Below, piece by piece: positions 5,565-25,932 of a stretch of 37,815 bases of DNA. Where the stretch lies: assembly GCA_029838195.1 (NCBI GenBank), contig JALGVJ010000033.1:1-37815 (forward strand), written 5' to 3'. The position numbers were made by a program, and so were the translations under genes. Within the stretch, counting starts at the first letter, position 1; every line of letters starts with the position of its first letter. The DNA comes from Promethearchaeota archaeon. GTDB lineage: Archaea; Asgardarchaeota; Lokiarchaeia; Sigyniarchaeales; SOKP01. A model generated the notes under the pieces. The model ran no database searches. It was not told the origin of the DNA and saw only the letters and a program-made list of their open reading frames with translations.

Positions 5565-6920
5565 ATGAAGATCGTAATTATTGGAAATGGCGTAGCCGGT
5601 ACTTTTTCTGCACAAAATATTCGAAATCTTGATAAGGACGTATCAATACACCTTTACTCAAAAGAGAATTATCCTTATTATACACGAATTAAGCTTCCTC
5701 AATTGATTTCTGAACAAGTTACCATATCAGATCTTATCGTTTTCAATAAAAATTGGTATGTTAAAAACAATATTGAACTTAACTTGAATTCAGAAATAAA
5801 AAAAATTGACACTCTTCATAAACAAGTGTTTCTAAATAATAATTCCTTACCCATCCATTATGATAAATTAATTCTCGCTACAGGGAGTCTGCCGAATATT
5901 CCTCCAATAAAAAATGCCAAAAAGTTTCTAAGAAATGGAGTATTCACATTACGAAGTATTCAAGATGCTTTAGATATTAAAAATTTTATTGTATCTAAAA
6001 AAGTTCAACGTGTAATCATTATCGGGGGAGGGCTACTTGGCTTAGAACTTGCTAAACAGATCAAGAATCGTGATTTAGATACGACTATTGTTGAATTTTT
6101 TCCTAGATTATTACCAAAACAATTAGATTTTGATTGTGGAACACTTCTGAAAGAAGAAATTGAAAGTATGGGCATAAATGTTATATTAGATGCTGCAACC
6201 GAAGAAATCCTCTCTGAACAAGAGGTTATTACGGGGATCCTAATAAAAAATGGGACAAAGATTGACGCAGATTTGGTTCTAATTCAAGCAGGAATTCGTC
6301 CCACCATCGATTTAGCAGTGGAAGCGGGAATAAAATGTAATCGTGGAATTATTGTAAACCAATATTTAGAAACTAGCATGAAAAATGTATTTGCTGTTGG
6401 CGATTGCATAGAATATAATGAACAAACATGGGGGATTATTCCCGCATGCATGGAACAAGCAAAAATTGTAGCATCGACCGTATTAGGAAAAAGGGATAAA
6501 GCTTATAAGGGCACTATTCCAAAAAATACATTAAAAATTATTGGCATTGACCTTACTTCCATTGGACTTTTTGATCCTAGTGATAAAGATTTAGTAGGGG
6601 CAGGTTGGGAAATCCTAAAAAATATCGATAAAAAAAGCAAGTGTTATAAGAAAATTGTTCTAAAAAATAAAAAATTAAAAGGCGCAATATTATTTGGAGG
6701 AAAAAAGGCTGTACCTTATATAAGTAAAAATATCGAGTCTGAGATAAATGAGGATGAATTGCGAAAAGTCGTTGAACTCTTTAAATGGAGGTGTAAAAAT
6801 TGCAACTATGTATATGATGATGCTAAGAACGATATTCTGTTTAAAGAATTGCCCGATGACTGGAAATGTAAATGCGACAGTCCAAAAACGATGTTTGAAA
6901 GAAATCCGGATAATATTTAA
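5565..6920 (+). CDS. NAD(P)H:rubredoxin oxidoreductase-like FAD oxidoreductase with C-terminal rubredoxin domain
   Basis: IIGNGVAG, LATGS, IIGGGLLGLE, FAVGDC; C-terminus WRCKNCNYVYD...LPDDWKCKC. Confidence 0.9.
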   Translation: MKIVIIGNGVAGTFSAQNIRNLDKDVSIHLYSKENYPYYTRIKLPQLISEQVTISDLIVFNKNWYVKNNIELNLNSEIKKIDTLHKQVFLNNNSLPIHYDKLILATGSLPNIPPIKNAKKFLRNGVFTLRSIQDALDIKNFIVSKKVQRVIIIGGGLLGLELAKQIKNRDLDTTIVEFFPRLLPKQLDFDCGTLLKEEIESMGINVILDAATEEILSEQEVITGILIKNGTKIDADLVLIQAGIRPTIDLAVEAGIKCNRGIIVNQYLETSMKNVFAVGDCIEYNEQTWGIIPACMEQAKIVASTVLGKRDKAYKGTIPKNTLKIIGIDLTSIGLFDPSDKDLVGAGWEILKNIDKKSKCYKKIVLKNKKLKGAILFGGKKAVPYISKNIESEINEDELRKVVELFKWRCKNCNYVYDDAKNDILFKELPDDWKCKCDSPKTMFERNPDNI

Positions 6921-6957
6921 CACTTAACTAATGGAAATTTCGTGAAAAGGTGATTAC

Positions 6958-7101
6958 ATGAGTTATAGATGTAAGAAGTGCAATTATTTGTACATTAATA
7001 AAGTTTATGAAATTCCTTTTGAAAATTTAAATAATGATTTTCGATGTCCACGTTGTCGTTGTTCGAAATCCATGTTTGTAAAGAAAAATCTTTCTACTTA
7101 G
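6958..7101 (+). CDS. Rubredoxin-like small protein (47 aa, not in ORF track)
   Basis: MSYRCKKCNYLY...FENLNNDFRCPRCRCSKSMFVKKNLST*; RBS AGGTGA at 6948-6953. Confidence 0.85.
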   Translation: MSYRCKKCNYLYINKVYEIPFENLNNDFRCPRCRCSKSMFVKKNLST

Positions 7102-7230
7102 ATTTTCAATCTTTTTCCTCATAATCTCCTCTCGGATACAAACGTTTATAAATTATTAAATCAATGTTTTTAATGAAAAAACAATTACATTTTTCAATCA
7201 GAACCCCTACAAAACTAAACGTGAATCACT

Positions 7231-7368
7231 ATGAAGTGGGAATGTACTGCATGTGGATATATTTATGATGAGGATGTAGAAGGAACCAAATTTGAAGATT
7301 TGCCTGATGATTGGACGTGTCCTGTGTGCGGTGTTGGAAAAGATATGTTTGAAAAGATAGAAGAATAA
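7231..7368 (+). CDS. rub: Rubredoxin (45 aa, not in ORF track)
   Basis: [45 protein letters not shown], a canonical rubredoxin. Confidence 0.95.
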
Positions 7369-7997
7369 TTTTCTAAATAAATTTAGAGCTTTTTCTTGAT
7401 TTTTTTTCTCCCTTTATTTCATTAATTTTTTTCTCTTTCATTAAAACAAACATTTTTATGACTTTCAATATTAAAAGAAATTTTTAAAATCTCTAATTAA
7501 GACTATTAAATTTAAATACTTATACGTATTATTAAGCGGTTTAAAATGCTAATGTGTCTTGATTTAAATTTTATATTTAATCTGATTTGGGCTCCTCTTG
7601 GGGAGATCATTTTTTTCATTTTTAGGCTTTCAATAATAAGAGAAATAAAATCTTTTCGAGTGCAAAAGTTATTAAAAAATGGATTATCATACAACGTCTA
7701 ATAATATTCTTCTGGATTCAGTTAATCCTGAATTTTTCGATGGATGGAATGGAGATAAGAAATATTTTCTCCCTTTCAAGAAAAAAGTAGATTTATATTT
7801 TAAATTAGGCAATCTTAGATTTCAGTTTCTTATTATCTTGCTTCTTTTTATAAAATAAATCCTTTGCCTTCCTTTCTTTAAATTAACATAGAATCCTTTC
7901 GGATTATTAATAATTAATAGAAATTAACTTTATTTTTTGGTCTAAAATATAATATATACTTAACTTATGTAAATAAAAACTTAAATGGTGATAACAT

Positions 7998-8264
7998 ATT
8001 ACTTTTCCAGCAATAATTAAAGATGTTTTTTTTGTAGGATACGTGGATTGGGAAGTTAGATCATTTTAATCCTCTTAAAATGAGGCTAAAAACTTTCACG
8101 GCTATTCTACTCATAAAGGCTCCTTTCCAGAAATTATAAAATATTTGCCTAATGCCGAAATCATTGCATCTGAGAAAGGAATTGAAATAAAATTCGTGCC
8201 AACTCCCGAACAGCTCAATTTCGATTCTATTATCGAAAAAATTATAAAAAAAATGGAAAAATAA
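7998..8264 (+). pseudogene. fprA: Internally deleted flavodiiron protein (FprA) remnant carrying a 30-nt intron-like insertion
   Basis: RBS GGTGA (7987-7991), then (ATT)TFPAIIKDVFFVGYVDWEVR-[30 nt]-NFHGYSTHKGS/FPEIIKYLPNAEIIASEKG/IEIKFVPTPEQLNFDSIIEKIIKKMEK*. The three blocks resemble the FprA N-terminus, the segment after DHSGS, and the flavodoxin-domain C-terminus. Confidence 0.8.
8060..8089 (+). other. Candidate BHB-type intron within protein-coding sequence
   Basis: AGTT-AG|A-TCATTTTAA-TCCTC-TTAAAATGA-GGCT-AA|A. Excision restores GAA GTT AGA AAC TTT CAC (EVRNFH). Confidence 0.6.
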
Positions 8265-8283: not shown

Positions 8284-9465
8284 ATGGAATTTACTTTAAC
8301 AAAAGAGCAAAAGGCTCTTAAAGAAAAAGCACGCATCTTTGCAATTAATGAAATATTACCTGTAGCGAGAAAATATGACGAATCAGAAGAATTTCCGTTA
8401 GATGTCATTAAAAAAGCTCATGAACTAGGATTATTGAATTTATCCATTCCTAAGAAATATGGTGGCCCAGACTTGGGAATTTTAGATGCTTGTTTGGTGG
8501 TGGAGGAAATATCCTCCGCTTGTCCGGGTATTGCAACGTCAATTTTTGATAATAATTTAGGTGCGGAACCCATTATATTAGGAGGGAATGAAGAACAAAA
8601 GCAAAGGATATTGTCTCAACTAATAAAGGATTATAAGCTCATTGCTTTTGCTACTTCTGAACCAACCATGGGGTCAGATGTTGCCGGAATGAAATGTAGG
8701 GCAGAAAAAGATGGAGAGGATTATCTCTTAAATGGAACTAAATTTTGGGTTACCAATGGTGGTTTTGCTGATTATATCATCATTTTTGCTACTATCGATC
8801 CTCAATTAAAACATAAAGGTATTTGTGCTTTTATCGTTCCTACCGATTCTGAAGGCGTGAAATTAGGGAAACAAATTCCAAAACTCGGTCAAAGGGCATC
8901 CAATACGGTAGCCGTGGTATTAAAAAACGTTCGCGTGAAAAAAGAAAATGTATTGGCGAAGCCAGGAAGGGGTTTTGTTTTAGCAATGCAAACATTTGCT
9001 CACACGCGTCCGGCAATTGGTGCTTTTGCTATTGGATGTGCTCGTTCTGCCATGGAATATTCTATCGATTACGCTAAAAAGAGAGAAGCATTTGGAAGAA
9101 CTCTCAATAATTATCAAGCTATTCAATTTAAAATCGCTGAGATGTATAAAGATATTGAGGCTGCCCGTCTTCTTACATATAAAGCTGCTTGGGAAGCAGA
9201 CCAAGGGCTTGATAATAATCTTAGCTCATCCATAGCTAAAGCGTTTGCTTCAGATGTCGCAATGAAAGTTACTATGGAAGCCATCCAAATCTTCGGAGGC
9301 TATGGATATTTAAGAACATATCCAGTTGAAAAATTATTTCGAGATGCGAAATTATATCAGATCTACGAGGGGACTAGCGAAATTCAGAGAATTATTATCT
9401 CTAGGTTTGCCATGAAACGCTATGAACATGCCATGCCCTCTCTTTTTAAACGCGATAGAAAATAG
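8284..9465 (+). CDS. Acyl-CoA dehydrogenase
   Basis: FATSEPTMGSD, LNGTKFWVTNG, QIFGGYGY, QIYEGTSEIQR. Confidence 0.95.
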   Translation: MEFTLTKEQKALKEKARIFAINEILPVARKYDESEEFPLDVIKKAHELGLLNLSIPKKYGGPDLGILDACLVVEEISSACPGIATSIFDNNLGAEPIILGGNEEQKQRILSQLIKDYKLIAFATSEPTMGSDVAGMKCRAEKDGEDYLLNGTKFWVTNGGFADYIIIFATIDPQLKHKGICAFIVPTDSEGVKLGKQIPKLGQRASNTVAVVLKNVRVKKENVLAKPGRGFVLAMQTFAHTRPAIGAFAIGCARSAMEYSIDYAKKREAFGRTLNNYQAIQFKIAEMYKDIEAARLLTYKAAWEADQGLDNNLSSSIAKAFASDVAMKVTMEAIQIFGGYGYLRTYPVEKLFRDAKLYQIYEGTSEIQRIIISRFAMKRYEHAMPSLFKRDRK

Positions 9466-25427: not shown

Positions 25428-25568
25428 GCTCCTGTAGTGTAGTCCGGTCAAGGAACTTAATGCTTTCCCCGATTATTCCACCGAAAGCATACGGGGCCTT
25501 CTTAAGAGCATTTCACTAATGCTCTAAGGTAAACCCCCGCGACCCGGGTTCGAATCCCGGCAGGAGCA
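25428..25568 (+). tRNA. tRNA-Glu(TTC) with two non-canonical BHB introns (25451-25485 and 25502-25532)
   Basis: Acceptor GCTCCTG/CAGGAGC-A and T arm CCGGG-TTCGAAT-CCCGG. Intron 1: CGGT-CA|A-GGAA...TTCC-ACCG-AA|A. Intron 2: GCCT-TC|T-TAAGAGCATT...AATGCTCTA-AGGT-AA|A. Spliced arm CGGGG-CCTTCAC-CCCCG. Confidence 0.85.
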
Positions 25569-25932
25569 TCAACAATTACCAGATCATCCATTATCCCTTC
25601 TATTATTTATCAATTAACACGAAAAGAGATATAATAAAGGGAAATTTGACCCTCACATGATCTTGAACTAAAAAAGAGGACCTTGAACAAAAAATATATT
25701 GGTCATAAAAATACAAAAAATTGTCCAACTGTTATATTTCACGTATATTTTTGATCATTTGGCCTATCCCGTAATTTAGGTTGCTTCAAACGAATAAAAT
25801 AATACAATATCATGATCAGTAAAATCTAAATATTATCATTAATTTTAAAAAATAGATTATCATTGTAGATTAATAGGGAAAACAATACGCTGTGAACCAC
25901 TAAAAACAAGAAGGTTAATTTCCCTCTTGCCA

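Follow-up and report, generated by a model that had tools for sequence, protein, structure and literature searches.

A candidate BHB mini-intron in the remnant of an fprA gene from an Asgard archaeal genome

The stretch of DNA analyzed here (the window) is 37,815 nucleotides long. It is contig C37 of the G000 draft genome, an Asgard genome of 4.5 Mb with 33% G+C on 94 contigs and an estimated contamination of 7.9%. The FprA relatives of the window are annotated as Promethearchaeota, members of the Asgard archaea. Three genes for rubredoxin-type proteins are followed by what is left of an fprA gene, and directly after it stands an intact acyl-CoA dehydrogenase gene, acd (Table 1). The syntenic fprA locus (L006) in a genome of the same genus (G001) has a conserved upstream region, fprA in the same place and acd directly downstream; the two acd genes are 77% identical in DNA. 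The rubredoxin genes of the window are an oxygen-detoxification cluster that lost its FprA partner.

Table 1. Features of the fprA locus, of the tRNA-Glu gene in the window and of the mini-introns elsewhere in the same genome. Reference bases are numbered along the stop-to-stop open frame of the G001 fprA gene (402 codons). A slash marks a predicted cut.
Feature	Position	Strand	Basis or remark
Rubredoxin-reductase/rubredoxin fusion (451 aa), then two small rubredoxins	5565-7368	+	upstream of fprA remnant
GGTGA, ribosome-binding-like motif	7987..7991	+	5' of fprA remnant; same place in L006
fprA segment 1, reference bases 1-62, begins at ATT	7998..8059	+	global alignment to L006:454-1665
Central helix H, exon strand AGUU	8054..8057	+	pairs with 8084-8087: A-U, G-C, U-G, U-G
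5' bulge AGA, predicted cut 8059/8060	8058..8060	+	geometry; AG/A as in DnaG intron
30-nt insert, candidate BHB mini-intron, two in-frame TAA	8060..8089	+	DNA alignment, orthologue comparison
Inner helix h', perfect 9-bp stem 8061-8069/8075-8083, 5-nt loop UCCUC	8061..8083	+	
Central helix H, intron strand GGCU	8084..8087	+	GGCU also in DnaG intron
3' bulge AAA, predicted cut 8089/8090	8088..8090	+	AA/A in all four verified mRNA introns
fprA segment 2, reference bases 63-96	8090..8123	+	global alignment
fprA segment 3, reference bases 262-317, after 165-nt in-frame deletion	8124..8179	+	alignment
fprA segment 4, reference bases 1128-1212, C-terminal 26 codons and stop, after 810-nt in-frame deletion	8180..8264	+	
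Acyl-CoA dehydrogenase (acd), intact	8284..9465	+	Pfam Acyl-CoA_dh N, M and C domains
tRNA-Glu(UUC), introns of about 35 nt (D-arm) and 31 nt (anticodon loop)	25428..25570	+	in-window comparison
Elp3 intron, 31 nt, frameshifting	G000:C23:59892-59922	-	locus L026
DnaG primase intron, 37 nt	G000:C38:54987-55023	-	locus L028
E2 ubiquitin-conjugating enzyme intron, 31 nt	G000:C72:37243-37273	-	
MoxR-like AAA ATPase intron, 30 nt	G000:C72:148432-148461	-	splits Walker A GGHGGGK/TT

The fprA copy in the window keeps 79 of the 402 codons of the G001 gene. The rest was lost in two in-frame deletions, and short microhomology is found at both deletion junctions (8123/8124, where it is TTCC, and 8179/8180). 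The G001 protein carries an ODP/metallo-beta-lactamase domain (residues 34-234) and a Flavodoxin_1 domain (263-386), which together make a functional FprA; the remnant has no Pfam domain at all. The original prediction placed an intron inside a protein-coding gene, but the host turns out to be a 79-codon stump, and judged by its sequence it is no longer a working gene. Splicing such a degraded host would rescue nothing recognizable. The missing segments are nowhere else in the assembly, which eliminates a split or trans-spliced fprA. A conserved mini-protein is rejected as well: among 5.8 billion sequences none has a similar length and architecture, and the single match is a partial FprA. Two intact FprA paralogues, 34% identical, are encoded in the assembly.

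The start of the remnant is unusual. No ATG, GTG or TTG start lies 5' of the EVR/NFHGY motif, and the same is true of L006 (near 440-456). At the expected start point the window has ATT and G001 has ATA, in both cases 6 nt 3' of the GGTGA motif. These triplets may be non-canonical start codons. An N-terminal frameshift of the remnant is rejected, since both congeners have one of these two triplets where the start is expected. Other fprA orthologues have a methionine where the window has ATT (region 7987-8000) and G001 has ATA.

Read in the frame from position 7995, the remnant translates as HITFPAIIKDVFFVGYVDWEVR-SF*SS*NEAK-NFHGYSTHKGSFPEIIKYLPNAEIIASEKGIEIKFVPTPEQLNFDSIIEKIIKKMEK, and both stops are TAA. 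Sequence and translation thus bear out the first claim of the original prediction, that 30 nt with two in-frame stops split the FprA motif after EVR. To place the insert we turned to related genomes. Of the 40 genomes searched, 15 encode an intact FprA in about 400 codons, and 11 loci were taken for comparison. All 11, the syntenic same-genus gene included, carry VGY(V/I)D(W/F)EVRNFHGYST without interruption. The DNA alignment to L006 breaks at 8060 and 8090; a placement at 8061-8090 is equally good because of one A, so the borders are ambiguous by 1 nt.

The original prediction had also looked to fprA orthologues for an insertion at the same site with compensatory changes in its stem. This expectation failed: none of the 11 orthologues carries the insert or any counterpart between EVR and NFHGY. 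Hence covariation cannot support the helices.

The predicted RNA structure contains every element that had been described for it: the central helix AGUU:GGCU, the bulges AGA and AAA, the 9-bp stem and the 5-nt loop. A BHB motif is characterized by a 4-bp helix between exon and intron, by a pair of 3-nt bulges, one to a strand, which follow their helix strands on the 3' side and each hold a cut site, and by at least one flanking helix. Here the 4-bp helix includes two G-U pairs, the bulges are placed as they should be, and the flanking helix is the inner stem h'. An adjoining outer helix h is missing (0 bp), which puts the motif in class HBh' and not in the strict class hBHBh'. The only outer pairing that the BHB conformer forms is a distal 6-bp exon-exon helix. 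Cutting after the second base of each bulge would remove exactly 30 nt and leave GAA GUU AGA AAC UUU CAC, with GAAGUUAGAAACUUUCAC as the predicted spliced junction; the same-genus gene reads GAA GTC AGA AAC TTC CAT at this point. The cuts predicted by this rule coincide with the insertion borders, which were fixed independently from the orthologues. The excision of 8060-8089 was proposed with the correct coordinates.

The fold is not the most stable one available to the RNA. Its minimum-free-energy (MFE) structure is a non-BHB fold that pairs UUAG with CUAA, and the BHB conformer lies 2.4 kcal/mol above it. The valine codon within the central helix is GTC in the sister species. With that codon the helix would contain a single G-U pair, and at the time of the intron gain it may have been more stable than it is now.

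How often would such a geometry arise by chance? The baseline was the genome's set of 2818 perfect hairpins with stems of 8 bp or more. In 89 of them (3.2%), four pairs form in exactly the register of the central helix, and 12 of these 89 also have an adjoining outer helix. When an AAA second bulge is added to the 4-bp helix, 7 hairpins (0.25%) are left. Taken alone, the BHB geometry of the fprA insert is no more than moderate evidence. Other hairpins with both the 4-bp helix and AAA are found at C1(-)278905, C77(-)15415, C50(-)28330, C87(-)65025 and C1(+)27699 (strand-specific coordinates).

The insert might instead be an ordinary mutational lesion, one of three indels that destroyed fprA. 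It would then be palindromic filler unrelated to EndA, and its BHB look would be coincidental. Two large deletions show plainly that the gene is in decay, and with the two distant intact paralogues this copy would be dispensable. The quasi-palindrome reaches into host sequence through UUAG:CUAA, one hairpin in about thirty has the central helix by chance, as the baseline above shows, and relaxed BHB-like classes are reported to be common by chance (doi 10.64898/2026.10.13.758758). However, we found neither donor nor template for the 30-mer in the flanks or in the orthologues. When it was aligned locally to the 11 orthologous loci together with 6 kb of flanking sequence, its scores did not exceed those of shuffled sequences, so a templated origin is rejected. 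A target-site duplication, if any, is at most 1 nt long. Furthermore, five features of the insert match a class of introns in the same genome, described below: the length of 30 nt, four of four pairs in the central helix, the AAA bulge, the flush inner helix and the agreement of cuts with borders. We consider a mutational lesion unlikely.

The original prediction named as the case against itself a dispersed palindromic repeat. We looked for such a repeat and did not find one. The genome holds one exact copy of the 30-mer, and matches with 2 mismatches number 11, compared to 7 for a reversed control. No word of at least 16 nt from the insert recurs in the genome beyond chance, and exact-pattern scans of public genome contigs and metagenome contigs returned no copy of the 30-mer. 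A dispersed palindromic repeat or MITE is rejected on the grounds that the insert is single-copy and its near-matches are no commoner than those of the control. The BHB reading survives this comparison.

An assembly or sequencing artefact is conceivable in any metagenome-assembled genome, and the number of contigs and the contamination of this draft invite the suspicion. The insert, however, lies inside a 37.8-kb contig and its flanks are collinear with the sister genome. Artefacts also do not normally create a unique, in-frame hairpin of 30 nt with BHB geometry. We regard this explanation as extremely improbable.

Further evidence comes from elsewhere in the same genome. Four other protein genes, for Elp3, DnaG primase, an E2 ubiquitin-conjugating enzyme and a MoxR-like AAA ATPase, are split by short inserts of the same design. 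Judged from sequence, excision restores continuous family profiles in the split genes. The two predicted exons of Elp3 correspond to positions 2-135 and 136-522 of TIGR01211, with the predicted junction GAUGUGGAC/AAAAUUGAG. Those of DnaG correspond to positions 1-26 and 27-278 of NF003108, and those of E2 to positions 21-62 and 68-139 of UQ_con. Elp3 and DnaG are single-copy in the genome. Without a second copy, these two genes must be spliced to work.

All four introns have a 4-bp central helix, 3-nt bulges, AA/A at the 3' cut, a length of 30-37 nt and an inner hairpin that is flush with the bulges. The fprA insert shares this design: it is 30 nt long, has the 4-bp helix, AA/A and the flush hairpin, and its excision would restore the orthologous reading. 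Its AG/A 5' bulge and its GGCU AA/A 3' end are identical to those of the DnaG intron. The BHB conformers of the four introns lie 2.7 (DnaG), 1.3 (E2), 1.2 (Elp3) and 0 (MoxR) kcal/mol above their MFE folds. The gap of the fprA insert falls within this range of the verified introns, and hence counts for membership in the class. There are differences too. The four hosts are intact, whereas the fprA host is degraded, and the fprA helix has two G-U pairs and no adjoining outer helix.

Introns of this class come and go among relatives. The Elp3 intron is absent from G001, G002 and G017, and the comparison indicates a gain specific to the G000 genome. The DnaG intron is common to G000, G001, G002 and G014, where its inner stem shows changes, and it is precisely absent from G017; it thus spans two genera and is absent from a third. 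The absence of the Elp3 intron from relatives means that lineage-specific gains occur, and the fprA insert, likewise missing from the sister species, fits this pattern. It can be read as a dated gain, present here and absent in the sister species.

We also scanned the whole genome for BHB geometry whose excision would join long open reading frames. True motifs were in no excess over mirror motifs, with counts of 11419/11420, 947/1005 and 2040/2047. The scan has low power because operon junctions swamp the signal; it nevertheless recovered the Elp3 intron independently. In a strict-hairpin scan, excising the other hairpins in BHB register joined no convincing split gene. On the evidence of the four split genes, the proposal that this lineage splices mRNAs with its tRNA machinery holds up.

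The machinery itself is encoded in the genome, with three genes that contain the EndA domain (PF01974) and one RtcB gene. Candidate EndA subunits lie at C1:152191-152421 and C8:28388-28642, and possibly also at C53:22042-22209. Two-subunit EndA is reported to be common in Asgard genomes (doi 10.64898/2026.10.13.758758), and this type is reported to cut non-canonical introns (PMC5829648). A presumed tRNA substrate is found in the window as well. The tRNA-Glu gene with two introns, to which the insert had been compared from the start, is real, although neither ARAGORN with introns allowed nor Rfam detected it at 25428-25570. The ARAGORN boundary search on this gene was permissive and is taken as backing for the intron sizes and nothing else. 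In the anticodon-loop intron, the 4-bp helix CCUU:AAGG is perfect and the inner stem has 8 bp, but the bulges look longer than 3 nt.

Multiple introns are known from Asgard tRNA genes, with repeated gains on terminal branches (doi 10.64898/2026.10.13.758758). The fprA insert resembles these introns in the presumed enzymes, in the motif and in its size, which is near that of the 31-nt anticodon-loop intron of tRNA-Glu. Unlike them, it would sit in an mRNA-type transcript. The text of the same preprint contains 0 mentions of mRNA introns. Our literature search found endonuclease-type archaeal mRNA introns only in crenarchaeal cbf5 and in one Haloferax 5' UTR. The Asgard genome described here, by comparison, carries several introns of this kind in genes for proteins.

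The cbf5 pre-mRNA of Crenarchaeota contains a BHB intron whose splicing has been shown experimentally and which is common to whole orders (Watanabe 2002; Yokobori 2009, PMC2738675). Like the cbf5 intron, the fprA insert would be a short intron in the transcript of a protein gene, possibly with a relaxed BHB motif, a presumed substrate of the tRNA splicing endonuclease and of a kind that relatives have both acquired and lost. Unlike cbf5, which is a functional gene with demonstrated splicing, the fprA host is dead and belongs to an Asgard archaeon, and the candidate intron is confined to one genome. The second known case, HVO_1309 of Haloferax volcanii, is a 46-nt BHB intron in a 5' UTR, with a circular RNA, cutting in vitro and conservation among haloarchaea (PMC7714728). 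The likeness here is one of position. Both BHB motifs precede a gene and fall in mRNA that does not code for protein, since the fprA stump is effectively a leader of acd. The fprA insert differs from the Haloferax intron in that it is predicted from sequence and that it is absent from the 11 orthologues.

At most, the fprA stump serves as a leader for acd. One may ask whether the hairpin regulates acd in cis as a leader structure or an element for transcript stability, having been gained once fprA was a leader, and is never spliced. Its place is some 200 nt ahead of acd in the same orientation, the locus has kept the fprA promoter region as well as the 3' end beside acd, and the Haloferax 5' UTR intron is itself regulatory (PMC7714728). 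Regulation and splicing may thus be compatible. Yet the same pair of genes does without the insert at the same-genus locus, the hairpin has no match in Rfam, and no T run follows the stem. A purely regulatory hairpin is therefore very unlikely.

The best explanation in our view is that 8060-8089 is a BHB mini-intron of the same 30-37-nt class, a recent gain that postdates the divergence from the sister species, in a host that is now dead. The assignment is based on the shared length, central helix, bulges, AA/A end and flush hairpin, and on cuts that coincide with the insertion borders. We put the probability of this reading at roughly 0.7. We infer that the fprA copy is transcribed and cut. 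Transcription would start from the conserved fprA upstream region, and the RNA would fold into the HBh' motif. Next, EndA would cleave each bulge behind its second base, at 8059/8060 and 8089/8090. Finally, RtcB would join the exons to GAA GUU AGA AAC and circularize the 30-mer.

Against the intron reading weigh the two G-U pairs, the lack of an abutting outer helix, the competing UUAG:CUAA pairing, the absence of covariation, the genome-wide scans with no excess of true motifs, and the dead host, for which splicing cannot be explained by selection. The insert could be the relic of an intron gain that was very recent and may have failed, at a site with weak or no selection for splicing. We hold this reading only tentatively and find it rather doubtful. 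It comes in two variants. In the first, the intron would have landed in a working fprA, spliced poorly because of the two G-U pairs and the missing outer helix, and silenced the gene, which then eroded. In the second, the intron would have landed in an fprA that was already dead. If so, the perfect BHB register that it forms with the upstream exon would be a trace of how it was inserted, for example by an integration guided by the pairing of the intron's own GGCU with its target. A landing in a dead gene, if true, would bear on how archaeal introns arrive.

As a witness for splicing, the fprA locus is weaker than Elp3 or DnaG. It is more interesting than these two for the origin of introns and for their fate after the death of the host. 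An intron-like insert in a gene that has no need of it separates the output of insertion from what selection keeps. Short stop-bearing inserts in Asgard genomes should not be taken automatically for lesions of pseudogenes. The converse applies at fprA: an insert with BHB shape is no proof of a living host gene.

All three indels, of 30, 165 and 810 nt, are multiples of three, an outcome with a probability of about 1 in 27 if each length were random. After excision of the insert, a single frame of 79 codons would stay open up to a stop codon that lies 20 nt ahead of the acd start. The three frame-keeping indels could be due to chance. They could also reflect past selection that kept ribosomes translating up to acd, and such selection makes sense only if the insert is spliced out.
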